This document shows, in pieces, positions 1 through 24,445 of a stretch of DNA of 61,096 nucleotides; positions within the stretch are counted from its first letter, which is position 1; every line of letters starts with the position of its first letter. The notes beneath the pieces were generated by a model. That model searched no databases. It was not told where the DNA came from and saw nothing but the letters and a program-made list of their open reading frames with translations. This DNA comes from a virus (taxonomy: Duplodnaviria; Caudoviricetes): positions 1 through 61,096 of IMG/VR virus record IMGVR_UViG_3300044633_000159. One strand, written 5' to 3'. Made by a program: the position numbers and the translations under genes.

Positions 1-3000
1 TTTTAACAACCGTACAGTTTCTGTTCAATTATATTTTGATACAGATGAAGATGTTTTAAAAGAAAATGGATCAAGTATAGACTTAAGTACAATTAAAAAC
101 GCTAGTGATATTTATTTAAGAGGACTTGCTGATGTAATATATTTACCTAATAAAATAAATAACTTAAATTTAGATAAGGGTACTAAAGCGTTTATGGTTC
201 CTAAAGAAATCACGTTAAGTGGAACTAAAAATATACAAAGTTTAGAATTAAAAATACCTAAAGACGAACAAGGATATTTTGATGTTAATAAAATTGTTTT
301 TGAAAATAAAAACACTTCTATAAATGAAACGTTTTTCATAATAGATGAAAAACCGTCAGATAAACTTATACAAGACATTTTAAAAAGCGAGATATTTTCA
401 ATTTCTAAAGAAGTAGTTGTATTTGGTAATGCTTTCTATAGAGATGCTGATGGAATTGGACAGTTTGAAAACGTGAGAATTGAATTAAAAAAACCTGAAC
501 AAAACGAAAGCGACGTAATTAAATTTAGTTTAGCAGAAGAAGAAAACGGTAAATTATCTCCTTTCTTAAAAGGATTGCCTTTTACTAAACAATGGCTTGT
601 AGCAAGAGATATAGATAGAGCTATTAACAAAGCTAAAATGTCTAGTTCTGCTCAACAAACAGAAATTGATAAACTAAACGTTAAGATATCAAAGACTGCA
701 GATCCTGTTAAAATAAAAGAACTAAAAGAAAAAATCAGTGAATTAGAAAGATTTGACAAAGTTACATTTAAAGTGCCAAGTAAGTCGGAGTTGTCAGACG
801 AAGCGATCGCTTACTTTATAATATCAAAAGTCGCAGAAGGTTACAATGATTTTGAGTTTAGAGTTAAAAGAAACGCTAGTGGACCTTTAACTAAGCAAGT
901 ATTAGACAATCTTGATTTTAAATCTAAGAAAGCAGCAGAAATAAGAAAACTAAACAGCAACTTAGAAGAAGGAATGAATCAGATTATAGAGGAAAACACA
1001 GGAGTTGAGGCATCAGAAACTTTCTCACCTGAAACCGCTAAAAATCTTGGTAAAAACATCGGTAAATATGATATATTCCTACCGCCAGAAGACGAGGATT
1101 TCTTAGGTTTGCTATACACTCTTGCTTCAGGCAAAGGTAAAAAAGGTGAGGAACAAATGAATTTCTTGAAAAGAGCTTTGATTGAACCTTACACAGACGC
1201 TATGCTTAAGTTGATGCAAGCAAGACAGGTTATGTATAAAGACTGGAGAGAGTTAATAAACAAAAAACACAAAGGTATAACAAAAGTGTTGAAAACAGAC
1301 TCTGGTTATGGTGGTTACTTAAACGATCAAGCAGTTAGAGTTTATTTGTGGAGAAGAGCTGGATACGATATACCTGGATTAGATAAGAAAGACGTATTTA
1401 ACTTACAAGAGATAGTTAGAAAAAACCCTGAATTAAGGAAATTCGCTGAAGACGTTTCTTTACTTTCTAAACAAGCAAATGGTTACATTGAACCAGATAG
1501 TAACTGGGGGTTTGGAAGTGTTGTAGGTGATATAAATAACATCATATCTAAATCAAGTAGACAGAAGTATTTAGAACCGTGGACTAGTAATGTAGAAAAA
1601 GTATTCTCTAAAGACAATCTAAGTAAGATAGAGGCGTTATATGGCAGAAAGTATGTTGTTGCGCTAAAGAACACTTTAGACAGAATGAAAACCGGCACTA
1701 ACAGAGCTGAAGGTTCATCAGATGCTTTTTTAAATTGGTTAAACGGAGCTACTGCTGTAACGATGTTCTTAAACGCAAGATCTGCTGTATTACAAACCAT
1801 AGGAGCGGTTAACTACATAAACACCAGTGATAACAATATTGCTAAAGCTGGTTTAGCATTGTTAAATGTTCCTCAGTATACTAAAGATTTCTTTACTCTT
1901 TGGAATTCAGATTATTTAAAAGATAGAAGATCTGGATTAACTACTGATGTTGTAGAAGCTGAATTAGCGCAGACAATGAACGATCCTAGAAACAAAAGTA
2001 TACTAGATAAGTTTAAAGCCGTTAACTACTTAATACTTAAATTTGGTTTTAATCCTACAAGACTTGCTGATAGTTTTGCTATCGCAATAGGCGGCGCTGG
2101 TTTTTATAGAAATAGAATCAACACTTACAAAAAACAAGGTATGGTTGAAGAAGATGCTATAAATAAGACTTTACGTGATTTCTACGATGTATCTGAAGTA
2201 TCTCAACAGTCTGCTGACGTGTCTAAAATATCAATGAACCAAGCTAGTACAAAAGGTAGGATATTACTTTCTTTTATGAATACTCCGTTTCAGTACTCTA
2301 GATTGATAAAGAAGTCTGCTATAGATATAATCAAAGGTAGAGGTAGTATTGAAAATAACTTAGCTAAAATAGTTTATTATGGAGCTGTTCAGAACATATT
2401 GTTTAACGCTCTTCAAAACGCTTTATTTGCTATGTTTCTTGACGACGAAGAAGACCAGAAAAGCGGTAAATTTGATACGGCTAAGATAAGAACAATAAAC
2501 GGAGCTTTAGATACTTTTGTTAGAGGTATGGGTATGAAAGGGGTTTTTCTTTCTACTCTTAAAAACGCGTTAATGAAAGCTTATGAAAAAAGAAAAGATC
2601 CTAAAGGATATGGAGACGTACTTGCTGAAATAGCTAACTTGTCACCTTCTATAGGTATAAAGGTTAGAGCAGTAGTAAAATCATACAAAGCTGTAACTTA
2701 TAATTTAGGTGAAATAAAATATAAAGGATTTAGTATAGATAATACTCACGCTATAGAAGCAGCAACATCTTTAACTTCAGCTGCTACTAACTTACCTGTG
2801 GATAGATTGTATATGAAATTTCAAAATATAGGCAATGCTTTAAGTGACGAATTTAATACTTGGCAAAGAATAGCTTTTCTGTTTGGTTATAATGAGTGGA
2901 ATTTAAACCCTACTAAAACAAAACAAGTAAATTCAAATTCTTCAGGAGGTTTAAAAATACCAGTGTTAAAGACAAGCGAGTTAAAACAACCTGGTCTTAA

Positions 3001-3010
3001 AACACCGTAA
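1..3010 (+). CDS. C-terminal part of a giant virion/internal (ejected) protein; 5'-truncated by the window edge
   Basis: Frame is open from position 2 through the listed ATG at 194; helical C-terminus typical of large podovirus internal proteins; lies at the end of the structural arm if the genome is permuted. Confidence 0.6.
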   Translation, partial: FNNRTVSVQLYFDTDEDVLKENGSSIDLSTIKNASDIYLRGLADVIYLPNKINNLNLDKGTKAFMVPKEITLSGTKNIQSLELKIPKDEQGYFDVNKIVFENKNTSINETFFIIDEKPSDKLIQDILKSEIFSISKEVVVFGNAFYRDADGIGQFENVRIELKKPEQNESDVIKFSLAEEENGKLSPFLKGLPFTKQWLVARDIDRAINKAKMSSSAQQTEIDKLNVKISKTADPVKIKELKEKISELERFDKVTFKVPSKSELSDEAIAYFIISKVAEGYNDFEFRVKRNASGPLTKQVLDNLDFKSKKAAEIRKLNSNLEEGMNQIIEENTGVEASETFSPETAKNLGKNIGKYDIFLPPEDEDFLGLLYTLASGKGKKGEEQMNFLKRALIEPYTDAMLKLMQARQVMYKDWRELINKKHKGITKVLKTDSGYGGYLNDQAVRVYLWRRAGYDIPGLDKKDVFNLQEIVRKNPELRKFAEDVSLLSKQANGYIEPDSNWGFGSVVGDINNIISKSSRQKYLEPWTSNVEKVFSKDNLSKIEALYGRKYVVALKNTLDRMKTGTNRAEGSSDAFLNWLNGATAVTMFLNARSAVLQTIGAVNYINTSDNNIAKAGLALLNVPQYTKDFFTLWNSDYLKDRRSGLTTDVVEAELAQTMNDPRNKSILDKFKAVNYLILKFGFNPTRLADSFAIAIGGAGFYRNRINTYKKQGMVEEDAINKTLRDFYDVSEVSQQSADVSKISMNQASTKGRILLSFMNTPFQYSRLIKKSAIDIIKGRGSIENNLAKIVYYGAVQNILFNALQNALFAMFLDDEEDQKSGKFDTAKIRTINGALDTFVRGMGMKGVFLSTLKNALMKAYEKRKDPKGYGDVLAEIANLSPSIGIKVRAVVKSYKAVTYNLGEIKYKGFSIDNTHAIEAATSLTSAATNLPVDRLYMKFQNIGNALSDEFNTWQRIAFLFGYNEWNLNPTKTKQVNSNSSGGLKIPVLKTSELKQPGLKTP

Positions 3011-3059
3011 AATAAGGAACAAATAAACTGAGCACCATACTCAAAGTTCCTATATAAAG

Positions 3060-3092
3060 AAAGGGGATGCACTTAATAGTGATCCCCTTTTC
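3060..3092. terminator. Bidirectional intrinsic terminator between the convergent arms
   Basis: AAAGGGGAT(G)CAC-loop-GTGATCCCCTTTT hairpin with A/T tracts on both sides, between convergent ORFs. Confidence 0.8.
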
Positions 3093-3113
3093 TTGTATAT
3101 AATAATTAAATAG

Positions 3114-3314
3114 TTATACTTTTTTCTCTAATTCTTCTTTTGCTTTTTCAGTCATTAGTTTAATAGCGTCTTCATAACCTGGCATTAACTTTAGCGTCTC
3201 TAAAGTACCAGCAGCTAATGTAGTTAGATGTTGTTGTTCAGTCATTACATATTGTAGAAGTCTAGTTAAAGATTCTACTTTGTTTTTCATTTCAACTAAG
3301 GTTTGTTCTTTCAT
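3114..3314 (-). CDS. hypothetical protein
   Basis: 66-aa ORF, start overlaps stop of the upstream gene. Confidence 0.7.
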   Translation of the reverse strand: MKEQTLVEMKNKVESLTRLLQYVMTEQQHLTTLAAGTLETLKLMPGYEDAIKLMTEKAKEELEKKV

Positions 3315-3874
3315 TTATTTACTTTATAAAACATTACAAATACTACTCTACTTTCTATAAACTCATTAGGATATTTACTATGGAAGTAATTACATGGGTA
3401 TGATATTAATCTATTCTTTTTGTGACCTATTATAGATTTTAAATCCCATAAATCAAGGTCATTAGCGTCTTCAATTAGCAATTTATTTTGTGCTTCGATA
3501 CTAATTTTTTTAAGTCTATCTCCATATCTTTTATGCTCCCAAAAAGCCGTGCCATTTAATCCTTCTTGTTTAGATTCAGAAACAAACAACACGCAAGCTC
3601 TATCTGGTTGTTGACCTTCTATTATAGAATCGTTATGTATACGCCAATCTACGTCTTGTCCTTCTTTTGCTTCTCTAATAAAATATAATATAGGTTCTAT
3701 ACTATTACCTTCTAAATTTTCTATTTCAAGTTTTATAATTTGCGCTATTGTATTAGGCACATCTTTAACCCAAAAGGATTTTCCAGGAGTTTTTACTTCC
3801 TGGAATTCATCCTTATTAGTGTTTAATAATTCAATTAAATTATCGTCTAAAAAATCATCTTTTATATAGATCAT
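3311..3874 (-). CDS. 2OG-Fe(II) oxygenase superfamily protein
   Basis: HxD (IHND), GTAFW and NRL...YFHS motifs of the 2OG-Fe(II) fold. Confidence 0.65.
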   Translation of the reverse strand: MIYIKDDFLDDNLIELLNTNKDEFQEVKTPGKSFWVKDVPNTIAQIIKLEIENLEGNSIEPILYFIREAKEGQDVDWRIHNDSIIEGQQPDRACVLFVSESKQEGLNGTAFWEHKRYGDRLKKISIEAQNKLLIEDANDLDLWDLKSIIGHKKNRLISYPCNYFHSKYPNEFIESRVVFVMFYKVNK

Positions 3875-5739
3875 ACTATTTCACAATTACCACCGCCACA
3901 AGCAGCTGAATCTGCAAAGTTGGTATTATCTTGAATCTCAACTACTTTGGACAGATCTACATCTTTTAACGCTGCCATCATCTCGTTGTAAACTTCTTCA
4001 GAACAGTCTTCAAACGGAGTTTGCTTGTATGTACCACCGTGGTAAGGTAGTACAGAAAGTCCGTTATAATAATCTTTATTCTGCCACATCCATTCTCCAA
4101 CTTCTTCCCACTCACCGTCTCTGACAGAAACTGTACAAGAAACATTATGAGTATTGTTACCTTTAATGTGACCATTTTTAACCCAGTCTTTAGATATTAA
4201 TTTAACTCTTTCAAGAAGATTTATTGTAGACTCATGTCTTGTTATAGCGCCATTAGGAGCCTTCTGAGGTACAGAAATTACTGCTTGCAATGTTGGATTA
4301 AAGTATTCGTCTTCGATCAGTTCTGGGTGGTGTATAGCAAGATAGGAATATATAGCTTCATTCTTACCTAAGCGCATACGGCGAACATAAAAATCATTAT
4401 GCCAAGCATGTATACCGCTAGAAGTACCAAGAACCAAGCTAGTTGTCCCAGCTGGTTTGACGGCAGTAGTTCTTGCTGCTGGATTGATCTTAAGTCGTTC
4501 AGCCAATTGCCAATTAGTTTCTTTAACGATTTCAGAAGCTTCTTCATAATTTAATTTTAAGTTAGACTCAGATGCAATACCTGTCATTGACACGCCTAAT
4601 AACGCGTCTTTCTCTGTGTTTTTTCTCCATATATCACGTAGATAATGAAAATCAGAATACGATGCCTGTAATGTGCCTATAAATGACGCTGCTGATGCTC
4701 TAGCATTAAAATCGTCTTGACTTTCAATATCTGCCATGTTAATCTCTGTGAGATTACAAAATTGATAAGGTCTTAAAGCGATTTCACAGCAAGGATTAGT
4801 ACCCCAATCTTTATCATTAGTAAGATATATTCCAGGTTCACCAGATCCAGACGCTTCAATACGTTCCCATACTTTGTCAAATGTTTGTCTATCGATTTTA
4901 TGTCTTAATAATACCACGGAGTTATTGGCTCTACCTCTTTGAGGATTGTTCTCCCACCATTCTCCTGCTTTGCAATTAAGCATTTCAGTACTATCAAGAT
5001 CAAATAAACTAATCATAGCGGCTCGTCTAATACCTCCTGCTAATACAGCATCGGCAATATGACATTGAATATCATGACACTCGATGTCTGTTAGTTTAGT
5101 TCTATCTGCTTTTTCACGTAATATACCTTCGATCTTTACTAGCGCTAGTCTAAGAGGTTCTGGACCAGGTGCTTTACCACCAGCAGTTACCAACAAAGCT
5201 CCTTTTTGTCTAATATCTGACAAATCAAACTCAATATGAGAGGTTAAACCTCCAGTGTATGACTTAAACAACGTCTTAACAGCATCTGCCCAACCTATAA
5301 TACTATCTTGTACTACGTATTTCTTTTTTCTATCGTAGTTAGGTTTTCTAATCTCTGGCAGTTTGTCTATGTTATGGTTTTGTACTGAATAACCAACACC
5401 TGTTCCACCTAATAACAAGAACATAGTTTCACTAAAACAATGAATACTATCTACAGGCATAAAAGCACAGTTATATATTCTAGCATTGTTTAGTTCTATC
5501 GCTTTACCGCCAAACTGCAAACTACGCATTGACGGTAAAACTTTCTTACTAAATACAAAATTATTGTATATCTGTTCTATAGACTCTCTTAACTCTGGAA
5601 ATTTAGTAATATGCATCTCCATATTCCTTGTTACTAACTCCTCCCAAGTCTCACGCCTTTCTTTTTGTGGTAAGTATTTAGCATATTTAGTATATACTGT
5701 AATGTCCGATAAGATTTGTTTATCTAATGTTAAACTCAT
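3871..5739 (-). CDS. nrdJ: Class II (adenosylcobalamin-dependent) ribonucleotide reductase
   Basis: TNPCCEI catalytic loop, VKPAGT, RIYNC, C-terminal CGGGNC; no beta-subunit gene nearby. Confidence 0.88.
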   Translation of the reverse strand: MSLTLDKQILSDITVYTKYAKYLPQKERRETWEELVTRNMEMHITKFPELRESIEQIYNNFVFSKKVLPSMRSLQFGGKAIELNNARIYNCAFMPVDSIHCFSETMFLLLGGTGVGYSVQNHNIDKLPEIRKPNYDRKKKYVVQDSIIGWADAVKTLFKSYTGGLTSHIEFDLSDIRQKGALLVTAGGKAPGPEPLRLALVKIEGILREKADRTKLTDIECHDIQCHIADAVLAGGIRRAAMISLFDLDSTEMLNCKAGEWWENNPQRGRANNSVVLLRHKIDRQTFDKVWERIEASGSGEPGIYLTNDKDWGTNPCCEIALRPYQFCNLTEINMADIESQDDFNARASAASFIGTLQASYSDFHYLRDIWRKNTEKDALLGVSMTGIASESNLKLNYEEASEIVKETNWQLAERLKINPAARTTAVKPAGTTSLVLGTSSGIHAWHNDFYVRRMRLGKNEAIYSYLAIHHPELIEDEYFNPTLQAVISVPQKAPNGAITRHESTINLLERVKLISKDWVKNGHIKGNNTHNVSCTVSVRDGEWEEVGEWMWQNKDYYNGLSVLPYHGGTYKQTPFEDCSEEVYNEMMAALKDVDLSKVVEIQDNTNFADSAACGGGNCEIV

Positions 5740-5892
5740 ATTTTTAATTGTCTATTTCTAATGTAAAGTTAATAAATGGTAAATATAACGCATGCGTTTT
5801 AAACGTTGGTTCTTCGTATGTTCTAATACCTATTAGAATACCGGGATAAAACCCTACAGCTAACTCCCACTCTCTTTCTTCTTTTATTTCTT

Positions 5893-6342: not shown

Positions 6343-6667
6343 TCTTGTCTTCTGTGACTTTGAAATGTTCGTTTTTATACGTTACTTCTTCAAACATAAC
6401 ATCTATGTCTAATTCTCTGAATTCTTTTAATAAACTTTCTTCTGACAAGTCGTGTATTTCGTCTTTGCACGCTTGTATGTATAGCACAGCGTCCATTAAC
6501 TCTTCCTGAACGTCGTTTAGGTATTTAAAAAGACCTTTCATCTTCTTAGTACGTTCGTCATGTAGTGTTTGACCGTATTTAGCAAACCCTACGTCTGATC
6601 TAGATACTAATTTGTCAACTACTTTTTCAACTACTGGGTCTCTAAAAACTATATTTTTTTCTGTCAT
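6335..6667 (-). CDS. All-alpha NTP pyrophosphatase-like small protein
   Basis: R..VG..KYG.TL ... QEELMDAVLY pattern common in phage nucleotide modules. Confidence 0.5.
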   Translation of the reverse strand: MTEKNIVFRDPVVEKVVDKLVSRSDVGFAKYGQTLHDERTKKMKGLFKYLNDVQEELMDAVLYIQACKDEIHDLSEESLLKEFRELDIDVMFEEVTYKNEHFKVTEDKND

Positions 6668-6668
6668 A

Positions 6669-8608: not shown

Positions 8609-10320
8609 GGAAGTTTATCGCTAGACGTATCTAACGGTATATGAGGTATAAAACACCCTGATCTTGGTTCCCATTTAAAATGTGCTTCTGCGCCATTTTC
8701 ACCTAAGTTTTGGAACTTAACTTTTAATACCTTACATTTAACTGTTTTTTGATCATAGTCTCTATGAACTAATAAACCGTGATAAGACGCATCGTACCAT
8801 TCACCACCACCTTTAATATTGTACATCGTAGGTTCTTCTATTTTACCGTCTCTATCTTTATACATTTTAGTTGGATGAGCAACTACGATAACTAATACAT
8901 CATACTTTTTAGCAAATACCTCTATCTGTTGTAGATATTCTAATGTATAAACGTTTACATCGCCAGAAGCGTCTTGAGCTCTAACCTTATTAAACGGATC
9001 TATGACTAAGCACTTAATACCTTTACGTTTAACTAGTTCTGCGCCTTTTCTTAATACAGACTCTAACGTATAACGTTCCATGTCTATAAAAAAGTAACTA
9101 TTGTTAACGTGGTCTGCTACTTGATTCCATTTATCTCCGTGTATTTCTTCAGGCGAAGGCATATCACCCCAGGTTTTACGCATTAACTTATGAGCATGTA
9201 GATAAGTTGGTTGATTCTCAGGTGAAGCAAAAGCAGTCTTCCAACCATATTTGCCATTATATCCAACAACCATTTGGTCAACAAAGTCAGATTTACCAGA
9301 ACTAGGTATTCCAGTGACGGTAATAAACTGACCAGTATATGTACTGAATATACTATCAAAATTATCCAACCCAATTTGGAAACCAGGTTTAAATCCGTTT
9401 CTAACAAAATCTGTAACATCATCTTCTATGTCTTTAAATGTTTTAACGTTTTCTAATGGAACAGGTCTTGCTTGCGATATTCTCTGAGACAGTTTTTCTT
9501 TACCATACTTTAATAAGTATTCATTAGCGTCTTTACAGTCTTCAAACGATGCTAGATAACAAACTTCAGAACCTAATCTACGTATTAACTCTGTTTGTAA
9601 CGCTTGACCTGCAGCATCAGAATCTACTGCTAATATAATCTTTTCTTTGTCGTCAAAGTAGTCTATACAACTATCTAAGTAATCTAGATTATTAGCATTT
9701 AAAGTAGCACCGTTAGGTACAGATACTACGTTTGTCACTCCAGCTTCGTGTAGAGCTAGAACATCCATTTCACCTTCTACTATTACACAATACTCATATC
9801 CCACGATGCTGTTTATATTGTAAAATACTTTTTCCGCGCCTTTATAAAGTTTAAAATTCTTTTTGGCATCACGGTATTTTATATTAACTAGTTGATCGCC
9901 GACGAAGTAATTAAAGTGTATAGCATTCTCCTCTTTACTAGTCTGAGGCATAAATTCTTTACCATCAGATATCTGTAACTCATAAAGAGTTTCTTTAGAT
10001 ATACCTCGTGTAGCAAACCAATTAACAACCGGTTCGCTTACTTGCATTTCTTCTACGTTTATTTTAGCAGGTGGTTTAATATAAACCTTTTCGCTAGTAC
10101 CTTTACGTTGGTAAGTATGTAGTTGAAAAGTCTTATTACAATTGTGGCAAGTACCTATACCGCGTTCCCAATCGTAAGATGCGCATTTTGCTTTTTCGTT
10201 TTTAGGTTTTCTATCAGAAGAGCATAGCGGACAAACGCCTTGAGTCTTACCTTCTTCTAAACCATACTTGTTAAACGTATCAATCAAGAAGCCATTTATT
10301 TCTGTGTTATTTACTTGCAT
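8599..10320 (-). CDS. DNA primase-helicase (T7 gp4/Twinkle-like)
   Basis: N-terminal CPLC..CHNC zinc ribbon, TOPRIM (VEGEMD, DSD, KDANE), SF4 helicase Walker A GIPSSGKS, VIDP, VAHP. Confidence 0.92.
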   Translation of the reverse strand: MQVNNTEINGFLIDTFNKYGLEEGKTQGVCPLCSSDRKPKNEKAKCASYDWERGIGTCHNCNKTFQLHTYQRKGTSEKVYIKPPAKINVEEMQVSEPVVNWFATRGISKETLYELQISDGKEFMPQTSKEENAIHFNYFVGDQLVNIKYRDAKKNFKLYKGAEKVFYNINSIVGYEYCVIVEGEMDVLALHEAGVTNVVSVPNGATLNANNLDYLDSCIDYFDDKEKIILAVDSDAAGQALQTELIRRLGSEVCYLASFEDCKDANEYLLKYGKEKLSQRISQARPVPLENVKTFKDIEDDVTDFVRNGFKPGFQIGLDNFDSIFSTYTGQFITVTGIPSSGKSDFVDQMVVGYNGKYGWKTAFASPENQPTYLHAHKLMRKTWGDMPSPEEIHGDKWNQVADHVNNSYFFIDMERYTLESVLRKGAELVKRKGIKCLVIDPFNKVRAQDASGDVNVYTLEYLQQIEVFAKKYDVLVIVVAHPTKMYKDRDGKIEEPTMYNIKGGGEWYDASYHGLLVHRDYDQKTVKCKVLKVKFQNLGENGAEAHFKWEPRSGCFIPHIPLDTSSDKLPWE

Positions 10321-11669: not shown

Positions 11670-12236
11670 TTATAGTGTTGTTAAGATTTTTTCTGCTTCT
11701 TTACTTAATTCGTATTTACCTTTGATAGTATCGATAGAGCCGCCACTAGAAACAAACGTTTTAGCTTTTTCAAAAGCATCGTCCTTAACATCTAATTTTA
11801 CCTTTGGTTTAGTTTGATCTGTTTTACCATGTGTATTTGAAGCATCGGCGTCAGCAGTATCATCTATTAATAATAGATTACCAAGAGCATATTTTTTGCC
11901 GTAAGAAGATGCTGAACCGAAAGCTTGTGGCGTCTGCATGCCTTTTTGTTGTAAATCCACGCCTACAATTGCTTTAACTTCAATTGACTTATCGCTGAAG
12001 GCATCGTGTATAGCAGCTCTGCTAATGATAACCGGGAGATCATGAGAATAAATATAATCCTCGTTAATTGTAAAATAAACACCGTACTTTTCGTTAAAAG
12101 GTTTTAAACCTTCTAATATATCCTCAGCGGATCTAAAATTGTACCTGCCGAAAGGATTATACCTGCTTTTATTAGCTTTGAATTCAACTTGAATTCTAGA
12201 CAGTTTAACAGACAATTCCATTGCTTGATTTTCCAT
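11670..12236 (-). CDS. ERF-family ssDNA annealing recombinase
   Basis: KSRYN.FG.YNFRSAEDI and Q..GSASSYGKKYAL...D.DA motifs. Confidence 0.85.
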   Translation of the reverse strand: MENQAMELSVKLSRIQVEFKANKSRYNPFGRYNFRSAEDILEGLKPFNEKYGVYFTINEDYIYSHDLPVIISRAAIHDAFSDKSIEVKAIVGVDLQQKGMQTPQAFGSASSYGKKYALGNLLLIDDTADADASNTHGKTDQTKPKVKLDVKDDAFEKAKTFVSSGGSIDTIKGKYELSKEAEKILTTL

Positions 12237-13403: not shown

Positions 13404-14017
13404 AGTTCTTGATTTAATAATTCTTTTTCTTTTTTAAGTTCTTTGCCGATGTTTCTGTATATTGTTCTAGGAGAACAACAGAGATATTTCGCTAGTTTTT
13501 CAACAGTAATTTTATCGCCATCGTCGTGAGTGTATAGCATGGCATCGTAGATCTCTGACTCTGATAATTTTTTACGACCGATAATTTGACCTACGATTTG
13601 TAGTTTCTGTTCTGTACTTAACATACAATTGTCTTTAAATATTATCTTACGTAACTTATTCTTAGGAGGAGATTCTAAGTCTGCCATGCTAACCTCATAA
13701 ATAATAGTTTTTAAAACATGCTCTGATATTGTAAATGTAACAAAATTATTTGAAGTATCACAGATAAATCTACATAAAGATTCTAAATTGTCTTGATCTA
13801 ACTTAGGGTTAAGATACCATATAACCAACAGATGCCATTTTAAACTTTTATAAGTATTTATTTTAGCTTTGCTTCTAAATAACTCGTAGCATTCATACGT
13901 TCCGTCTTGGTAATAATAACCCCAGTCATATATATCCGTTGGTTTATCATTAACTGGAAACCTTCGGTATATTATTCTTTTATCGATCAAGTATTTAATA
14001 TTTCTATCATGTGACAT
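13388..14017 (-). CDS. DNA-binding protein with C-terminal helix-turn-helix; possible origin/operator-binding protein
   Basis: KITVEKLAKYLCCSPRTIYRNI HTH; start codon lies inside a 46-bp inverted-repeat site. Confidence 0.65.
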   Translation of the reverse strand: MSHDRNIKYLIDKRIIYRRFPVNDKPTDIYDWGYYYQDGTYECYELFRSKAKINTYKSLKWHLLVIWYLNPKLDQDNLESLCRFICDTSNNFVTFTISEHVLKTIIYEVSMADLESPPKNKLRKIIFKDNCMLSTEQKLQIVGQIIGRKKLSESEIYDAMLYTHDDGDKITVEKLAKYLCCSPRTIYRNIGKELKKEKELLNQELCGTN

Positions 14018-14055
14018 TAGCCCCTTATTATTTATATATACACCCTATTGTCACA
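14010..14055. promoter_or_regulatory. Inverted-repeat site A: TGTGACATTAG-N24-CTATTGTCACA
   Basis: Same arms recur at 22119-22165 and 24544-24590. Confidence 0.75.
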
Positions 14056-14983: not shown

Positions 14984-15233
14984 GATCTTGTTTATATTTG
15001 TTAATTAAATCTTTTAAGCCTTTCTTTTTTTCTTCATTAAAAACATCATATAATCCTAACTTCTCATCTTCTTGCATAATATCTATTAAATGTTGTTTAG
15101 TGTCTTCGTATATCTCTAATAGTTCGTATTCTAAATACGTTTCATCATACTTACTTTTAGCGTAAAGTATTTCTTGTTTGTAGTTTCTATTCCTATAAGG
15201 GTAATATTCATCTAGCCATTTCTTGAATGTCAT
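14976..15233 (-). CDS. hypothetical protein
   Basis: ORF coupled to neighbours. Confidence 0.65.
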   Translation of the reverse strand: MTFKKWLDEYYPYRNRNYKQEILYAKSKYDETYLEYELLEIYEDTKQHLIDIMQEDEKLGLYDVFNEEKKKGLKDLINKYKQDHE

Positions 15234-15556
15234 AAGTTTATCTGTATTTTACGTGTTTCGCAACTCATCTTGTGTATAGCACTCGTCTGTCCACAGCTAC
15301 TGCAATAATCATCTTGCGTACACTTTGGATAGTTGCATTGTTCTAAATTACATATCTCACCTTCGCGCTTAACGCCATTGTGTTTGCACTTGTTTGAGTC
15401 TTTACCGTTAGGCCAAAAGTATGAACAACTTGTTTCATCATCTTCAGGACTAAAGTTAGCATAGGATTGCCAAAAATCATTAGGAGTAACTGTAAACCTA
15501 TGGCAATAATCTTTTGAGGGGCAATGTAGGTTTCTACACATTGAAATATCTGGCAT
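15230..15556 (-). CDS. Cys-rich hypothetical protein
   Basis: MPDISMC....CP....C.RF N-terminus and several further Cys residues. Confidence 0.7.
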   Translation of the reverse strand: MPDISMCRNLHCPSKDYCHRFTVTPNDFWQSYANFSPEDDETSCSYFWPNGKDSNKCKHNGVKREGEICNLEQCNYPKCTQDDYCSSCGQTSAIHKMSCETRKIQINL

Positions 15557-15558
15557 AA

Positions 15559-15762
15559 TTATAGTTCTTTTAAAATGTTACCGTTATTATCTAACCAACC
15601 ACCTTCTATAAAAGCATTTGCTGCTCGACCATAATGGTCTTGTAATGACCATGCTACATTAGTTTTAACCATATCAGAAAACAGTTCTATTATTTCTTTA
15701 TCATTAAGCATGCCATATTCAAATTGCATTATTTGATCTACAAAGTCTTTAGTTCTTTTCAT
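15559..15762 (-). CDS. hypothetical protein
   Basis: AWSLQ.HYGR.A motif seen in phage hypothetical proteins. Confidence 0.7.
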   Translation of the reverse strand: MKRTKDFVDQIMQFEYGMLNDKEIIELFSDMVKTNVAWSLQDHYGRAANAFIEGGWLDNNGNILKEL

Positions 15763-15765
15763 TAA

Positions 15766-15972
15766 TTATCTATTTTTTTCTATTAAAGTAAATAAATACA
15801 TGTAAATTAATTTTTCTTCCTCAGTTTGTTCTATAACACCCTGTAATTGCTCTGCGTCTATACCACCTGTATTATCATACTTTAAGTTTTCACGCAATCT
15901 TTGTAATTCAAAGTTTAATGTAGTTAATTTAGCGTAAACCTTGTCAAACGCTTTTTCTTTTATATCTTGCAT
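15766..15972 (-). CDS. hypothetical protein
   Basis: ORF in early cluster. Confidence 0.6.
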   Translation of the reverse strand: MQDIKEKAFDKVYAKLTTLNFELQRLRENLKYDNTGGIDAEQLQGVIEQTEEEKLIYMYLFTLIEKNR

Positions 15973-18746: not shown

Positions 18747-18796
18747 AATTAAAATGTATTAAAGGGTTTAATAAGGTTACCACTATGGTAACTTCG

Positions 18797-18860
18797 TGAT
18801 TAAGAAGGACTCGAACCTTCAACTCAGTCTATGTCCCTGAGTCATCGCCTGATTTAATCG
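18797..18860 (-). ncRNA. Minimal tRNA-like RNA with reduced D-arm and CAU at the loop centre
   Basis: Acceptor GATTAA/TTAATC, canonical T-arm GAAGG-TTCGAGT-CCTTC, stem CTCAG/CTGAG. Confidence 0.55.
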
Positions 18861-18892
18861 ACCAACACGCCTTATCGAGCGTGTATAGCAAG

Positions 18893-19081: not shown

Positions 19082-19090
19082 ACTAATTAT

Positions 19091-19318: not shown

Positions 19319-19322
19319 GTAT

Positions 19323-19353
19323 ATTATCCTACTAAAATATTATATAGTCCGTG
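19323..19353 (-). promoter_or_regulatory. Class I phage promoter
   Basis: CACGGACT-N17-GATAAT. Confidence 0.8.
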
Positions 19354-19503
19354 CAGATTAACAAGCACAGTATATGTAATAACTACTAAGATAACAACTA
19401 CTAATAATACTATTGATTCTCTGTTTTCTTTCACTGTATTTAATATTTAGTGTCCACAGTAGGAATCGAACCTACGACCTGATGATTATGTAGCTCAAAT
19501 GGT

Positions 19504-19527
19504 TAAAATAGTTTATTTATGTGTAAT
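19504..19527 (+). promoter_or_regulatory. Class II promoter upstream of the HNH gene
   Basis: TAAAAT-N11-GTGTAAT. Confidence 0.6.
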
Positions 19528-19558
19528 AATATAACTATATAACTAAACGAATTGAAAA

Positions 19559-20104
19559 ATGGAAAAAGAAAAACTACAAGAACAAATATTATTGTCTAAG
19601 TCATCTAGAGAAATAGCTAAACATTTTGATGTTAGCCAAAGCACTATAAGATATTGGACAAAAAAATACCAATTAAGTATGCTGTTTAATAGCGAATATA
19701 ATGGTTTAAAGTGTAGAGTTTGTAACTCTTCATTAGTAAATATGCAGAAAGTTTACTGTTCAAATAACTGCAAAGTAAAAGGTCATTATATTAATTCTAA
19801 AAACAATACTAATTCTGTATATAGTCAAGAAAGTAGAGGTATAGAGCGTAAAAAACACTTTATGAACATACTAGGTGGTAAATGCAATTCTTGCGGTTAT
19901 AATAAGAATATTACCGCGTTAGAATTCCACCATGTAGATCCAACTACTAAAAAACTACAACTAAACATGAGAACTTTTTCCAATAATTCAATGAACGTTT
20001 TAATTGAAGAGGTTTACAAGTGTGAATTACTATGTGCTAATTGCCATAGAGAACACCATAATCCTCGTTTTAACTACTTTATTCAATCTGCTCTAACCGA
20101 CTGA
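19559..20104 (+). CDS. HNH endonuclease with N-terminal HTH and zinc fingers (homing-type mobile gene)
   Basis: SSREIAKHFDVSQSTIRYW HTH; CRVC..YCS..C; GGKC..CGY....ALEFHH..P...C.LLCANCHREHH; the only convincing + strand gene in the leftward arm. Confidence 0.88.
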   Translation: MEKEKLQEQILLSKSSREIAKHFDVSQSTIRYWTKKYQLSMLFNSEYNGLKCRVCNSSLVNMQKVYCSNNCKVKGHYINSKNNTNSVYSQESRGIERKKHFMNILGGKCNSCGYNKNITALEFHHVDPTTKKLQLNMRTFSNNSMNVLIEEVYKCELLCANCHREHHNPRFNYFIQSALTD

Positions 20105-20154
20105 GCTATGTGGACTACCGAGATTACCTAGCGCTACGTGTATAGCACTACGCT

Positions 20155-20646
20155 CTACCTATCCATAAGCGATTGTAATTTTTTTAACATCGGTAATAAT
20201 TCGCTGAACATCTCGGCACGCTTTTGTTGCTCATCAAGTGTTTTCTGCGTAGGCATCTCACGTGCTTTGATCCATTTACCATTTTTAAATACCTTTATAT
20301 TTCTATAATAAAAGTCTCCGTTAGGTAATAACTCATGATCTTCATTGGTAACGATCTGACCATACTTAGTCCAGACACCTAGAGCAAAACCTCGACGCTC
20401 AGCTTCTTTGGTCATCTCTAATACCTTGCAACAATCACTACTTGCTGGTACAGTTATAGATGGTTGTTTACCATTATCTATATCCATCCAGAATACGTGA
20501 CCTTGATTGGTTAAATTCCAAGGAAATGCTGATTTAAGGTCGATATCCATATCGATACACTTTCCTAGTTCTTCTTGATTTCTAAATCTTAAGAACTCTT
20601 CTACAAATAATTCTTTCTGTACTCTTGTTAACTTGCTAATTTTCAT
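20155..20646 (-). CDS. hypothetical protein
   Basis: AF.W..T.QGH.FW motif seen in phage hypothetical proteins. Confidence 0.7.
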   Translation of the reverse strand: MKISKLTRVQKELFVEEFLRFRNQEELGKCIDMDIDLKSAFPWNLTNQGHVFWMDIDNGKQPSITVPASSDCCKVLEMTKEAERRGFALGVWTKYGQIVTNEDHELLPNGDFYYRNIKVFKNGKWIKAREMPTQKTLDEQQKRAEMFSELLPMLKKLQSLMDR

Positions 20647-20648
20647 GC

Positions 20649-20900
20649 TTATTTAATATTAATGGTTAATGACTGAAATCCTTGTTCTGTACTTACATGC
20701 TTGTGATTCCACAATCGAGTGCAAGCGAACTTCTTACTCTTACTAAACGTAGACTTTTGTCTAGTTGGTAACCTAAACCATTCAGAGTTCGTTAGTCCGC
20801 TGCATCTTCTCTCTTGTGAGTTTAAACGCCTATGCTCGTTTATTCTATCTCTTTTTAAATTCTTAATATACTCGTGGGCAATTACTGCTGCTGCTTCCAT
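20649..20900 (-). CDS. hypothetical protein
   Basis: ORF in early cluster. Confidence 0.55.
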   Translation of the reverse strand: MEAAAVIAHEYIKNLKRDRINEHRRLNSQERRCSGLTNSEWFRLPTRQKSTFSKSKKFACTRLWNHKHVSTEQGFQSLTINIK

Positions 20901-20902
20901 AG

Positions 20903-21061
20903 TTATATATATGTTATTTCTAAATTTAACTTCTCTGTGGTCATGTAACTCGTGGTGTCTAAACCATAGTGTTTATCTACATATTCTTCGATATTTGTAC
21001 CTGTTGGTACTTCGACTATGTTTACTTTACCTTCTGAGTAATCTAATATAGTTATATACAT
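20903..21061 (-). CDS. small hypothetical protein (52 aa, below ORF-track cutoff)
   Basis: Manually translated MYITILDYSEGKVNIVEVPTG...; abuts neighbours. Confidence 0.5.
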   Translation of the reverse strand: MYITILDYSEGKVNIVEVPTGTNIEEYVDKHYGLDTTSYMTTEKLNLEITYI

Positions 21062-21184
21062 ACTTAACTTCTTAATGCCGCTCCCGCTGCGTTAGACAAT
21101 TCTCTAAAATTCACTTGTAATTTACTAGCTAACCTAAAGGTTATTAAACTTACTAGTCTTCTGTATTTTCTCATTATATTTAAA

Positions 21185-21361
21185 CTATTGGTTATAAACT
21201 TGATTTACTAAGTCCTCTAATAATACACTACGATCGTAGCCGGATTTCCAGCTACAATCAGTGTATATATACTCAGACATTTCTCTAATCACTTGATCTC
21301 TTTCGCCATATTCAGCGAACGCTTTGAAATGCTCTATGGTACTATCTTTAAATTGACTCAT
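21185..21361 (-). CDS. small hypothetical protein (58 aa, below ORF-track cutoff)
   Basis: Manually translated MSQFKDSTIEHFKAFAEY...; starts 1 nt after the upstream stop. Confidence 0.55.
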   Translation of the reverse strand: MSQFKDSTIEHFKAFAEYGERDQVIREMSEYIYTDCSWKSGYDRSVLLEDLVNQVYNQ

Positions 21362-21362
21362 G

Positions 21363-21560
21363 TTAGTTTAAATCAGATTTTCTAATGAAAGTCCAACCTT
21401 TGTGGTTAAACCATGAAGTTACGCCATCTCGCTCATTCTCGGCATCGTAGATGAAGGCAAATTTAGCTGGGAGGTTACCAATTAGGAAACCAGTGTATTC
21501 GACTTTGTTAAGCCAAATAGTAGACTCGCGTCTTTTGAAAGTTTTAACTGTTGTAGTCAT
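21363..21560 (-). CDS. hypothetical early protein
   Basis: First gene after class I promoter. Confidence 0.7.
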   Translation of the reverse strand: MTTTVKTFKRRESTIWLNKVEYTGFLIGNLPAKFAFIYDAENERDGVTSWFNHKGWTFIRKSDLN

Positions 21561-21607
21561 AGGTAATAAAGGTATTAAAGTTTAATTATTAAATTATTTC
21601 CACGTAT

Positions 21608-21638
21608 ATTATCTTACTAAAATAATATATAGTCCGTG
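21608..21638 (-). promoter_or_regulatory. Class I phage promoter
   Basis: CACGGACT-N17-GATAAT. Confidence 0.8.
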
Positions 21639-21645
21639 TGGTTGA

Positions 21646-21909
21646 TTATTGCTTCGGTATGGTAAATATAGTTGAATAGAAATCTTCTTCTTCTTCATAC
21701 TCATCATAGTTATCAGGGTATAACTCAGATAGTTCCTCGTAAGTGGGGTCATTAAAAGTATCGAAGGTATGGTGTATACTCACGGTAATAACTTCTATCT
21801 CGTTACCATCCTCGTCTTCTGTAAATCCTTCTTCTATATCGAAGGTTATTACTCCGTTAATTTTCTCGATAATACTTGATAATTCTGGAAATTCTGGAAA
21901 TTCTTGCAT
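21646..21909 (-). CDS. Highly acidic small early protein
   Basis: 26 Asp/Glu versus 2 Lys and no Arg in 87 aa. Confidence 0.7.
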   Translation of the reverse strand: MQEFPEFPELSSIIEKINGVITFDIEEGFTEDEDGNEIEVITVSIHHTFDTFNDPTYEELSELYPDNYDEYEEEEDFYSTIFTIPKQ

Positions 21910-22029
21910 AAGTAAAAGGTGTTAATTTATTTGTTAGTTTTAAAGTTCCTTGAGGGTGTATTACCACGCTTCATCCTGACTATTAACTAGTTAAGACTCG
22001 AAAGGTGTTAATAATTAACCCTCGAATAT

Positions 22030-22060
22030 ATTATCTTACTAAAATTTTAACAAGTCCGTG
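22030..22060 (-). promoter_or_regulatory. Class I phage promoter
   Basis: CACGGACT-N17-GATAAT with TGCTATACAC just upstream. Confidence 0.8.
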
Positions 22061-22118
22061 CGGTGTATAGCAGTAACTTGCTGCTTTAATGGCACACCAA
22101 ACCACCAATCTGGAAAAG

Positions 22119-22165
22119 TGTGACATTAGGGTATTAAGTAAGAAGAGTAACAGGCTATTGTCACA
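22119..22165. promoter_or_regulatory. Inverted-repeat site B: TGTGACATTAG-N25-CTATTGTCACA
   Basis: Matches sites at 14010 and 24544. Confidence 0.75.
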
Positions 22166-22376
22166 GTTTTTTATCTCCATACTTGCAGTAAAATAACTTA
22201 TCTATTGACTCGTAGTTGACTCCATACTCAGTAACTATGGCTTGGAATACACTATCCACCCATTGCCACTCACTATCTAGTGACTCGTCACCACAATCCG
22301 CATAAAAGTTGATCGCTTGACCATGTTTGGTGATTATTATCCACCCTTCTTGTAATACTATTCTACCGTATTCCAT
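22161..22376 (-). CDS. hypothetical early protein
   Basis: 71-aa ORF whose stop codon lies in inverted-repeat site B. Confidence 0.6.
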   Translation of the reverse strand: MEYGRIVLQEGWIIITKHGQAINFYADCGDESLDSEWQWVDSVFQAIVTEYGVNYESIDKLFYCKYGDKKL

Positions 22377-22395
22377 GTTTTTAAAATTAAAGTTT

Positions 22396-22421
22396 AAAAA
22401 AAAGCCGCCCGAAGGCGACTT
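22396..22421 (-). terminator. Intrinsic terminator after paralog 1
   Basis: AAGTCGCC-TTCG-GGCGGCTT-TTTTTT. Confidence 0.85.
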
Positions 22422-22431
22422 ATTTGACTAA

Positions 22432-22728
22432 TTATACTAATTCTGGTAACGCTCTAACGAAAGCGGGAAGATTGTTAGTATTGGTATAACTCCCGTACTT
22501 CTCGAAGCATGGCATGAGGTCGAATTTCGCTTTTAAAGCGTTATATACCTTATCATGGTCGTAGGTACATAGTACGTTTTTAGCGTTGGTAAAGGAAATA
22601 ACTGTGTTAGTTCCTATTAATGACTTGCGAATAACAAAGCGCTTAGTTGTAATAGCGTTTTTAGTTGTTACTACTGCTACAGGAGCTGCCACTGGCGCTA
22701 CGACTGTATTGGTTTTTACTTTGGACAT
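22432..22728 (-). CDS. Paralog 1 of four-copy early protein family (98 aa, start MSKVK)
   Basis: TTKRFVIRKSLIGTNTVISFTN..YDHDKVY..MPCF.KYGSYTNTNNLPAFVR core; start reassigned downstream of the promoter. Confidence 0.85.
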   Translation of the reverse strand: MSKVKTNTVVAPVAAPVAVVTTKNAITTKRFVIRKSLIGTNTVISFTNAKNVLCTYDHDKVYNALKAKFDLMPCFEKYGSYTNTNNLPAFVRALPELV

Positions 22729-22774
22729 AGGTAATAAATTATGGTTATGAAGTCGAATATCGAACTTCATATAT

Positions 22775-22805
22775 ATTATCTCACTATAATAATTGTAAGT
22801 CCGTG
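22775..22805 (-). promoter_or_regulatory. Class I promoter of paralog 1
   Basis: CACGGACT-N17-GATAAT. Confidence 0.8.
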
Positions 22806-22885
22806 TAGTGTATAGCACTTCACACTAAATAGATCGTTAGCGATTGAACACACCTCCGCCTGTCCATTCCGCTAATAAGCAGAGT

Positions 22886-22910
22886 AAAAAACCCTCTTTC
22901 GAGGGTCTTT
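22886..22910 (-). terminator. Intrinsic terminator after paralog 2
   Basis: AAAGACCCTC-GAAA-GAGGGTTTTTT. Confidence 0.85.
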
Positions 22911-22922
22911 ATTTACCTTATA

Positions 22923-23207
22923 TTATACTAACTCTGGTAATGCTCTAACAAAAGCAGGTAAGTTATTGGTATTGGTATAACTACCATACTTTTCAAAGCA
23001 AGGCATGAGGTCAAACTTAGCTTTTAACTGGTGATAAACCTTGTCATGGTCATAAGTGCATAACTCATTCTTGTTGTTGGTAAAGCTAATTACTGTGTTA
23101 GTTCCTATTAGACTCTTTCTAATAACAAACCTTTTAGTAGTTAGTGCATTCTTGGTTACTACAGGAGCTACTGGTGCTACGACTGTGTTAGTTTTTACTT
23201 TTGACAT
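22923..23207 (-). CDS. Paralog 2 of four-copy early protein family
   Basis: Same conserved core. Confidence 0.85.
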   Translation of the reverse strand: MSKVKTNTVVAPVAPVVTKNALTTKRFVIRKSLIGTNTVISFTNNKNELCTYDHDKVYHQLKAKFDLMPCFEKYGSYTNTNNLPAFVRALPELV

Positions 23208-23252
23208 AGTAATAAATATTAAGTTACTGAGCTCATTATTAAGCTCGTATAT

Positions 23253-23283
23253 ATTATCTTGCTAAAAATCCTGTAAGTCCGTG
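23253..23283 (-). promoter_or_regulatory. Class I promoter of paralog 2
   Basis: CACGGACT-N17-GATAAT. Confidence 0.8.
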
Positions 23284-23369
23284 TAGTGTATAGCATAATG
23301 CACTATGATAAAGACTGTAAATGACAATTAAAGTCGGCTCTGCCTGTCCATTCCACCGATAGGTAGAAG

Positions 23370-23394
23370 AAAAAACCCTCTTTCGAGGGTCTTT
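23370..23394 (-). terminator. Intrinsic terminator after paralog 3
   Basis: AAAGACCCTC-GAAA-GAGGGTTTTTT, identical to 22886-22910. Confidence 0.85.
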
Positions 23395-23406
23395 AGTTGA
23401 TTACTG

Positions 23407-23643
23407 TTATACTAACTCTTTAAGTGATCTAACGAACGCTGGTAGGTTATTAGTGTTAGTGTAACTACCATACTTATTAAAACAAGGCATAGAATCAAAC
23501 TTGTCTTTTAGTTGGTTGTAGACTTTGTCATGATCATAAGTCATTAACTCATTCTTGTTGTTGGTAAAACTGATAACAGTGTTTGTACCAATTAAACTTT
23601 TTCTGATCACAAATCTTTTTGTAGTAATAGTGTTTACTGACAT
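23407..23643 (-). CDS. Paralog 3 of four-copy early protein family (78 aa, start MSVNT)
   Basis: Same conserved core; start reassigned by comparison with the other copies. Confidence 0.85.
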   Translation of the reverse strand: MSVNTITTKRFVIRKSLIGTNTVISFTNNKNELMTYDHDKVYNQLKDKFDSMPCFNKYGSYTNTNNLPAFVRSLKELV

Positions 23644-23689
23644 AGTATAAAATATTAAGTTATGGAATCCATTATTAAATTCCATATAT

Positions 23690-23720
23690 ATTATCTGACT
23701 ATAAAACTCGTAAGTCCGTG
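23690..23720 (-). promoter_or_regulatory. Class I promoter of paralog 3
   Basis: CACGGACT-N17-GATAAT. Confidence 0.8.
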
Positions 23721-23743
23721 CGTGTATAGCATCGGAAGGATAT

Positions 23744-23769
23744 AAAAAAAGACCACCGAAGTGGCCTTT
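23744..23769 (-). terminator. Intrinsic terminator closing the paralog 4 unit
   Basis: AAAGGCCAC-TTCG-GTGGTCTTTTTTT. Confidence 0.85.
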
Positions 23770-23773
23770 AAAA

Positions 23774-23875
23774 CTATATACTTATCAAACTACGTATAAC
23801 AAAGTATAACGCTGCATAGATGATAAAGAATATCTGAAGTCTCGCTTGACTAAAGAATCTGAGTATGTATTTCAT
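23774..23875 (-). CDS. Possible 33-aa hydrophobic peptide
   Basis: MKYILRFFSQARLQIFFIIYAALYFVIRSLISI between paralog 4 and its terminator. Confidence 0.4.
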   Translation of the reverse strand: MKYILRFFSQARLQIFFIIYAALYFVIRSLISI

Positions 23876-23933
23876 ATTAAGATATATTAGATTAATAAAT
23901 AAAGCAGTTTAATGACTTGCTTAGGTCGGTTGA

Positions 23934-24191
23934 TTAAACTATCTCTTTCAATGCTCTAACGAACGCTGGGAGATTGTTTGTGTTCGTGTATGAACCATAC
24001 TTAGCGAAGCATGGCATTGCATCGAACTTGTCTTTGAGCTGCTCATAGACTTTGTCGTGATTGTAAGTGCATACGACTTGCTTTGCATTTGTGAATGAGA
24101 TCACTGTGTTAGTACCGATCAGAGACTTTCTGATAACGAATCTTTTAGTAGTAATTTCTACTGTTGCTGGTAATGTGTTTAATTTAGACAT
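23934..24191 (-). CDS. Paralog 4 of four-copy early protein family
   Basis: Same conserved core. Confidence 0.85.
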   Translation of the reverse strand: MSKLNTLPATVEITTKRFVIRKSLIGTNTVISFTNAKQVVCTYNHDKVYEQLKDKFDAMPCFAKYGSYTNTNNLPAFVRALKEIV

Positions 24192-24232
24192 AATAAATTT
24201 ATTTAATTATAAGCTTAATTGCTTACATATAT

Positions 24233-24263
24233 ATTATCCAATATAAATTCTTGTAAGTCCGTG
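24233..24263 (-). promoter_or_regulatory. Class I promoter of paralog 4, plus an orphan CACGGACT at 24292-24299
   Basis: CACGGACT-N17-GATAAT. Confidence 0.8.
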
Positions 24264-24445
24264 TGTTATAAAATATATATATAAAGTAGTAAGTCCGTGT
24301 GTATAGCAAAGGTAAAAAGCTAAAACAAAGCAGCGCATCGATCCGATTCGACTGACGATGAAAACCAAAACATAAACACAAAGGGGAACCCGGCAAAACA
24401 AAACGCGTTTTCCTTTTGGAAACGAAAATAGAAAATGGGGTAGTA

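Follow-up and report, generated by a model that had tools for sequence, protein, structure and literature searches.

The DNA analysed here, referred to below as the window, is a whole virus record of 61,096 nucleotides (IMGVR_UViG_3300044633_000159; Duplodnaviria, Caudoviricetes), and its source is a lake-water phage. The minus arm of the window (3.1-24.6 kb) carries genes for a ribonucleotide reductase, a resolvase, MazG, thymidylate synthase, a primase-helicase, an exonuclease and Erf, and further a sigma factor, a helix-turn-helix (HTH) protein, a MoxR ATPase with a VWA protein and four paralogous small-gene cassettes, each with its own terminator. The plus arm holds the tail, lysis, GroEL/ES, terminase, portal and virion genes. 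Scattered mainly across the minus, early arm is the 10-base word TGCTATACAC, which reads GTGTATAGCA on the other strand and is the subject of this analysis. The word is real, exact and under selection at the nucleotide level. As to its function, we see about an even chance that it is the recognition and cleavage site of a strand-specific endonuclease of the phage.

Number, sharpness and sites of the word

We counted the word exhaustively on both strands. There are 13 exact matches to GTGTATAGCA, 12 on the plus strand and one on the minus strand (at 1110), and these are the same 13 positions that an earlier note on this DNA had listed. That note had seen no exact copy within 24.6-61 kb in a manual scan and had expected fewer than one copy by chance; the exhaustive count likewise found none in that interval, and in dinucleotide shuffles the expectation is 0.11 copies, with 13 copies reached in 0 of 100 shuffles. 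The word is the most frequent 10-mer of the genome, and its 11-mer extensions reach at most 4-5 copies. If one mismatch is allowed we gain just 4 additional sites (6477, 16743, 42711 and 48752), compared to 4.77 sites expected for exact and variant matches together. A literature search with both strands of the word returned only unrelated primer matches.

Six of the copies lie in long open reading frames (ORFs) and they use two different frames, A-I-H at four sites and L-Y-T at two (Table 1). When synonymous codons were shuffled within genes we would expect 0.48 sense in-gene copies, whereas 7 were observed (for one of them the 49-aa ORF is doubtful), a number that was not reached in any of 2000 shuffles. 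The argument of the earlier note that codon bias is not sufficient to explain the copies in ORFs thus holds under a codon-aware null model.

Along the early arm the copies are spaced 0.4-5.6 kb apart in one long transcription direction. Five of them (22063, 22808, 23286, 23722 and 24299) adjoin a CACGGACTT box, and as previously noted this includes all four paralog cassettes. A second repeated element, ACGGACTTAC-N14-GATAATATA, is present in 8 copies between 14464 and 24262, all of them intergenic and on the minus strand, and probably represents an early promoter class. Other lineages have ACAAACTAAATACGA in place of its upstream box and retain GATAAT. Table 1 gives the coordinates of the word, of the promoter-like units and of a candidate endonuclease gene that is discussed below.

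Table 1. Positions of the word, its one-mismatch variant and associated features in the window
Feature	Position	Strand	Context
TGCTATACAC copy	1110..1119	+	giant late gene, frame L-Y-T; sole plus-strand copy; same codon in G001-G005 and G011
TGCTATACAC copy	4330..4339	-	ribonucleotide reductase gene, frame A-I-H; same site in G010
TGCTATACAC copy	9916..9925	-	primase-helicase gene, residue ~131 (N-A-I-H-F); kept in 6/6 close genomes
TGCTATACAC copy	12006..12015	-	Erf-like annealing protein gene (A-A-I-H)
TGCTATACAC copy	13530..13539	-	HTH protein gene (M-L-Y-T), upstream of sigma factor gene
TGCTATACAC copy	15272..15281	-	close to 3' end of 108-aa ORF, frame A-I-H
TGCTATACAC copy	18881..18890	-	intergenic; tRNA-like element 20 nt on, MoxR-type ATPase gene 135 nt on; kept in G001-G005
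TGCTATACAC copy	20138..20147	-	intergenic; 22 nt before 5' half of split tRNA-like gene
TGCTATACAC copy	22063..22072	-	2 nt upstream of CACGGACTT-N-GATAATAT promoter-like unit
TGCTATACAC copy	22808..22817	-	2 nt upstream of promoter-like unit, paralog cassette 1
TGCTATACAC copy	23286..23295	-	2 nt upstream of promoter-like unit, paralog cassette 2
TGCTATACAC copy	23722..23731	-	1 nt upstream of promoter-like unit, paralog cassette 3
TGCTATACAC copy	24299..24308	-	3-nt overlap with first CACGGACTTAC box; 36 nt before promoter-like unit, paralog cassette 4
one-mismatch variant TGCTATACAT	6477..6486	-	in 110-aa ORF; same variant kept in G001-G003
ACGGACTTAC-N14-GATAAT, example	22775..22804	-	probable early promoter class
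ACGGACTTAC-N14-GATAAT, starts	14464, 19323, 21608, 22030, 22775, 23253, 23690, 24233	-	
92-aa basic protein, candidate endonuclease	24656..24934	+	invariant D58, D60, H61, D63, N72, R73, G74, N75

Two copies (18881 and 20138) had been described as lying about 20 nt upstream of tRNA-like genes. The distance is correct (20-22 nt), whereas neither ARAGORN nor Rfam called a tRNA in the sequences that follow. The tRNA-like gene at 19470-20115 (minus strand) is split by an insert of ~600 nt; its 5' half reads GTCCACATAGCTCAGTCGG... and its 3' half ends in ...GGTTCGATTCCTACTGTGGACA, and the insert contains an ORF for an HNH endonuclease on the opposite strand (19559-20104, plus). A DNA contig of run X5 joins position 19490 to 20086 with 4 other letters between them. 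The other tRNA-like element, at ~18800-18870 on the minus strand before the MoxR ATPase gene, shows a T-arm (GAAGGTTCGAGTCCTTC) and a 9-nt anticodon-like loop. It is retained by G002-G004, where both sides of the anticodon-like stem show changes.

Conservation and orientation in related phages

We retrieved 12 IMG/VR contigs with a composite pattern consisting of the word and the adjacent box and widened the clade by loci that were found through the sigma factor. The gene calls of the relatives follow a simple longest-ORF rule. The complete relatives G001-G005 contain 7-11 copies each and the reversed control word is present in none of them. The same range of 7-11 copies holds for all ten complete related phage genomes, that is G001-G005 together with G011 (9 copies in the whole record), G012 (7), G013 (8), G014 (8) and G015 (9), where the control word occurs 0-1 times. 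We found 3 copies in G010, 1 in G009 and 0 in each of G006, G007 and G008. The sharp k-mers that we did encounter in the motif-free G007 and G008 are protein repeats of tail-fibre-like genes. A related phage contig of 63 kb, L104 (G016:C28), has 7 copies and was binned with a Sphingobacteriales metagenome-assembled genome, which gives a weak hint at this group as host.

In the primase, Erf, HTH and giant genes the copies occur at identical codons across relatives with a DNA identity of only 76-95%. Across four gene alignments the degenerate codons within the word were invariant in 13 of 13 cases, compared to 34% elsewhere, if the Erf gene of G004 is left out; with this gene, which lost the word, 11 of 13 were invariant. 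The earlier note had named synonymous conservation of the in-gene copies as a check, and both the counts and the codons bear it out. The note had also described the copies as denser towards the presumed first-entering end. Indeed, 12 of the 13 window copies lie within 4.3-24.3 kb, the early half, and they become denser towards the divergent control region. Judging from the alignments, the sites also turn over, the primase and Erf genes having gained copies at different codons per lineage: the Erf copy (12006) was lost in G004 via synonymous changes and gained ~11 codons away in G012 and G015, and other lineages have their primase copies at different codons of that gene. Comparing 55 unique sites we observed no conserved base beyond the ten and no second element, and among the sites of the relatives there is no fixed distance from the word to the gene starts.

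The orientation of the word was claimed to follow transcription. In the window this is true for 13 of 13 copies, taking the tRNA-like gene as the unit downstream of 20138, whereas in the relatives the rule breaks down. Restricting the count to genes of at least 80 aa in the 12 genomes we obtained 59 in-gene copies, 50 sense and 9 antisense, and the copies next to promoter-like units point both ways. The antisense copies are nearly all located in late genes, for example in the terminase gene, and hence share their DNA strand with the copies of the early arm. For the late arm we counted about 7 independent antisense sites versus 2 sense sites, read by eye from the site listing and not from a tree. 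Of all 100 exact copies in the 12 genomes, the early-sense DNA strand carries 78 and the opposite strand 22. The copies on the other strand are of two kinds: the orthologous giant-gene site and inverted copies at the upstream edge of early promoter-like units. DNA strand rather than transcription is therefore the better rule for the orientation of the word.

The association with the promoter-like units is close. The word lies within -3 to +3 nt of their upstream edge, and this is true of three lineages and of either orientation. In the window the five promoter-adjacent copies are all direct, and in G001-G004 the variant TGCTATACAT takes the inverted promoter-adjacent position in two or three cassettes per genome. 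This association keeps a transcription-linked role alive and suggests that two functions may be coupled.

These observations bear on the possibility that the word acts on RNA or on the elongating RNA polymerase, either as a processing site at UGCUAUACAC or as an ops/nut-like loading site on the sense strand. The early-arm copies are sense and spread along one long transcription direction, and two of them stand ahead of tRNA-like elements, as such a signal would. However, it should then be located in a transcribed leader, and the five promoter-adjacent copies lie between the preceding terminator and the next promoter-like unit, upstream of the start. The inverted and antisense copies in relatives speak against it as well, and no NusG/RfaH-like or RNase gene was recognised among the window genes. 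We consider an RNA-level role very improbable, and the antitermination function suggested in the earlier note does not fit these five copies either.

A second possibility is a role as start element or promoter specific to the phage: RNA polymerase in a phage-directed form would start at or just after the word and drive the middle genes, the tRNA-like RNAs and, in relatives, antisense or late transcripts. T7-type promoters are similarly exact polar words which are repeated 10-20 times, are partly intragenic and also precede RNA genes. The sense orientation of all window copies and of most in-gene copies agrees with this, as do the copies that follow terminators and precede genes or tRNA-like elements and those in tandem or back-to-back with early promoter-like units. 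The phage encodes a sigma factor, and there is no Bacteroidota-type -33/-7 promoter between the genes of the window, unlike in the distant relative elemoA, where the host-type Bacteroidota promoter TATCTTTGCA occurs 6 times. Yet T7 promoters are ~23 bp long, are always sense and depend on a phage RNA polymerase. We found no such enzyme: the large and giant proteins gave no Pfam, PHROG or PDB hits to one and no T7-type motif B, and the one DxDxD seen in the giant proteins is not conserved.

The earlier note had listed the sigma factor and the HTH protein as possible readers. In the alignments we detected no residue pattern that separates motif-bearing from motif-free genomes; the DNA-reading regions of both proteins are alike with and without the motif, and neither is borne out as a reader. 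A promoter would also leave several features of the word unexplained. It lacks a second element and a fixed start distance, and some sites are deep within genes. The late-arm copies are mostly antisense, and the inverted copies face away from the adjacent cassette. In G012 only 2 nt separate the end of the word from a tRNA-Met, and because this is too close it is not the -10 element for that gene. Lastly there is a precedent in LUZ19, for which the available part of PMC3604761 reports the nick word as the sole sharp intergenic motif, with no relation to transcript abundance, so that such a motif need not relate to transcripts. Taking both sides together we regard a promoter function as unlikely. 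An exact, polar and conserved phage motif is easily mistaken for a promoter, which is a warning for annotation in general.

Contig ends, a candidate endonuclease and proposed nick sites

We compared the ends of the loci and found that 10 of the 524 ends (262 loci) begin with ATAC[AG]C. Six of these begin with ATACAC (L054, L209, L219, L226, L253 and the end of G014) and four with ATACGC (L233, L236, L244 and L247). Each of the 10 is a true contig terminus on an IMG/VR contig of its own, and 0 are arbitrary cut ends. The contig ends share the break phase TGCT^ATAC(A/G)C and stem from different metagenomes. In many relatives tandem TGCTATAC(G/A)C copies are located a few hundred bases upstream of the gene for a 92-aa protein (Table 1). 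L209, L219 and L226 begin at A5 of the last tandem copy and L253 and L054 at other copies, whereas the longer contig L217 reads through the homologous site. We found 80 loci with the 92-aa protein, and by hand count ~62 of them start at a contig terminus no more than 10 kb upstream of the gene. The simplest explanation for such a fixed phase inside a 10-base word in different assemblies is that the DNA really ends or is broken at TGCT^ATAC.

Tandem or overlapping words, e.g. GCTATACATGCTATACAC and TGCTATACACaagTGCTATACAC, were seen in G014 (15113-15875), G015 (57132-57154) and L217 (9541-9574), at the edge of the cassette region and near the 92-aa gene.

The 92-aa gene is the only gene that tracks the word. 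Of 11 motif-rich genomes 10 contain it, nine with strong matches and G003 with a copy truncated at the end of the contig; G012 gave a weak match, and there was no match in the motif-poor G006-G010 (0/5). The motif DxDHxDG..NRGN is invariant in 30 of 30 aligned homologs. The nearest named ESM-Atlas clusters are HNH families (score 0.87, to be taken as a lead only). For the protein itself there was no Pfam hit, no Foldseek match and nothing by hhalign, and its structure model has a predicted local distance difference test (pLDDT) value of 62. A tblastn comparison with named phages gave no match, possibly due to the low-complexity filter. That the protein might be an endonuclease acting at the word is only a lead. 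The earlier note had favoured the four-copy paralog as the ligand and had suggested co-occurrence as a check. We ran this check and rejected the candidate, since the paralog is absent from the motif-rich G011 and present in the motif-free G006-G008.

Based on these results we propose the following mechanism. A sequence- and strand-specific endonuclease encoded by the phage would recognise TGCTATACAC and cut it between T4 and A5 (TGCT^ATACAC). The dispersed copies would then lead to localized single-strand interruptions in the packaged DNA, and in some relatives the same enzyme would also make the genome end beside the divergent control region. The small basic protein of 24656-24934 may be this enzyme.

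The closest known parallel is phage tf. PMC3517423, in the part available, reports that 14 nicks were mapped, each in the top strand and within the exact word TACT^RTGMC, and that there are just 17 sites if one substitution is allowed; the nick positions are similar in the LUZ24 group and the genome has two convergent gene sets. The record of tf annotates 12 nicks in the plus-strand early arm (sense) and 2 within minus-strand late genes (antisense); on the top strand we found the word itself 14 times, on the bottom strand not once. tf/LUZ24 and the clade studied here thus share an exact non-palindromic word of 9-10 bases with ~8-14 copies per genome and rare near-variants. Both show a strand bias and a concentration in the early arm, where the copies are sense, with a few antisense copies in the late arm. 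In both, the copies are placed in genes as well as at gene junctions, 0.7-5 kb apart, and their positions are conserved among relatives while the word differs between lineages. tf and this clade also have two convergent arms and, as we infer for the clade, a break after the fourth base. It is the digital, strand-biased, early-arm-rich and positionally conserved pattern, so like that of tf, which leads to the nick-site reading. The short exact word with its rare near-variants, the conserved positions and the skew towards the early half are all as we would expect for nick sites.

There are also differences. tf and this clade are unrelated phages and the clade probably infects Bacteroidota. Many copies here adjoin early promoter-like units and some relatives have tandem arrays near the probable genome end, unlike tf, in which no homolog of the 92-aa protein was found. 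Site-specific one-strand breaks of virion DNA at conserved words are likewise described, in the portions of the literature at hand, for T5/BF23 and for the phiKMV-like phages (CGACxxxxxCCTA^CTCCGG). These differ in having fewer major sites (4-5); the phiKMV sites are on the non-coding strand, and the T5 sites are not defined by the T5 word alone. As the nick sites of tf and T5 share the same skew, a link between the word and the entering end of the genome is possible.

Several points weigh against an endonuclease site and need to be set beside these likenesses. The evidence from contig ends comes from assemblies of relatives and not from raw reads. Contigs of the metatranscriptome run X24 (7% of sampled words) have three ends near motifs, at 9916, 13535 and 20138, and these do not share the TGCT^ATAC phase. 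Known nick systems keep to one strand (14 of 14 sites in tf). The corresponding share is 12 of 13 for the window and 78 of 100 for the clade, which leaves 22 of 100 on the other strand. The adjacency to early promoter-like units irrespective of orientation is not predicted by a pure nick model, and every window copy is sense to transcription. For the candidate enzyme the lack of a Pfam hit, the poor model and the lack of a fold match count on this side, and its co-occurrence with the word may reflect a single loss in one subclade. Finally, the nicks of tf are bench-proven, whereas nicks in the virion DNA at the dispersed copies of this phage are inferred only.

Two other readings have to be compared with the endonuclease site. 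The word could be an operator for a phage regulator, placed beside the -35-like box of the early cassette promoters for shut-off or activation, with extra copies elsewhere. The tight spacing to the promoter-like units in both orientations and in several lineages would fit an operator, as would the relaxed last base (TGCTATACAT) at promoter-adjacent copies. Left unexplained would be why the dispersed copies are so strongly strand-biased, how long genes came to gain copies independently and why contigs end within the word. Nor does the presence of the motif go along with any change in the recognition helix of the HTH protein, and an exact non-palindromic 10-mer with variants at chance level would be unusual for an operator. 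Altogether we find it quite improbable.

The word could also be directed at the host, as a Chi-like signal for a host nuclease or as a signal for a DNA translocase. Like Chi sites it is polar, exact and strand-skewed, and the motif-free relatives could infect other hosts. However, Chi sites are host-wide words of 5-8 bases, and at ten bases the word is to our knowledge longer than any Chi. We counted it in five bacterial genomes, picked via GroEL similarity and one binned phage contig (whose metagenome-assembled genome was included). These five Bacteroidota genomes contain 2-12 copies per 4-8 Mb, which is no more than the reversed control, though the true host may differ. A host-directed word is in our view extremely unlikely. 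The earlier note had proposed a polar protein-binding site with several possible roles. What stands of this is a polar DNA word under selection; the Chi-like role received no support, and the antitermination and paralog-ligand parts were not borne out either.

Site-specific phage nicks have been known since the 1960s (T5) without an accepted function, in T5 and tf alike, and PMC3517423, as far as its available text goes, names no responsible enzyme. If the endonuclease reading is correct, the phenomenon extends to an abundant clade of uncultured freshwater phages which probably infect Bacteroidota, with a fixed break position and a small candidate enzyme at hand. One may go further and assume a two-part system, in which the 92-aa HNH-like protein and the 10-base word would make both the genome end and the strand-specific nicks of the early arm, and in which the promoter-edge copies would couple the breaks to promoter activity or to stepwise DNA entry. 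This extended form is decidedly unlikely in our estimation; if true, it would offer a testable function for phage nicks, which have gone unexplained since T5.

Further features of the window and its relatives

At either end (1-3010 and 60780-61096) the window stops inside a single giant late gene. In the relatives this gene encodes proteins of 2462-3346 aa; their first 105 residues are matched by the last ORF and their last ~1000 by the first ORF. If the window ends are joined, the giant gene has only 1109 aa. The gene is thus split across the ends, the record is not a closed genome and at least ~4 kb are missing. Among named records, the closest by terminase is an uncultured podovirus (64%), followed by the Flavobacterium elemo phages (45%) and Cellulophaga phages (37-39%).

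The nearest named relative, L001/L034 (MW202828, 43745-55154), is without the 10-mer. Its early arm contains a perfect 16-base palindrome, GTGTCGTTAACGACAC, 14 times, and most of these copies are located 16-39 nt before start codons. In the window we observed a quasi-palindrome of ~43 bp, TGTGACAATAG-N27-CTAATGTCACA, at 14052 (minus), 22162 (minus) and 24547 (plus), so that both orientations are represented; one of these copies overlaps the HTH gene at its start codon. G003 has the element as well, and in L055 we counted TGACAATAG 5 times.

The 529-aa virion protein encoded at 56172-57761 (plus) has a match to PF25729, the C-terminal domain of the muzzle protein of crAss viruses (E 2.4e-9). 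GroEL, GroES and a second GroES-like protein are encoded at 34252-36056 and 39023-39631 (plus). The AT-rich divergent region between the arms contains two direct repeats, GAGATTTGATGGGT, at ~24440-24500 (minus), which could be iterons.

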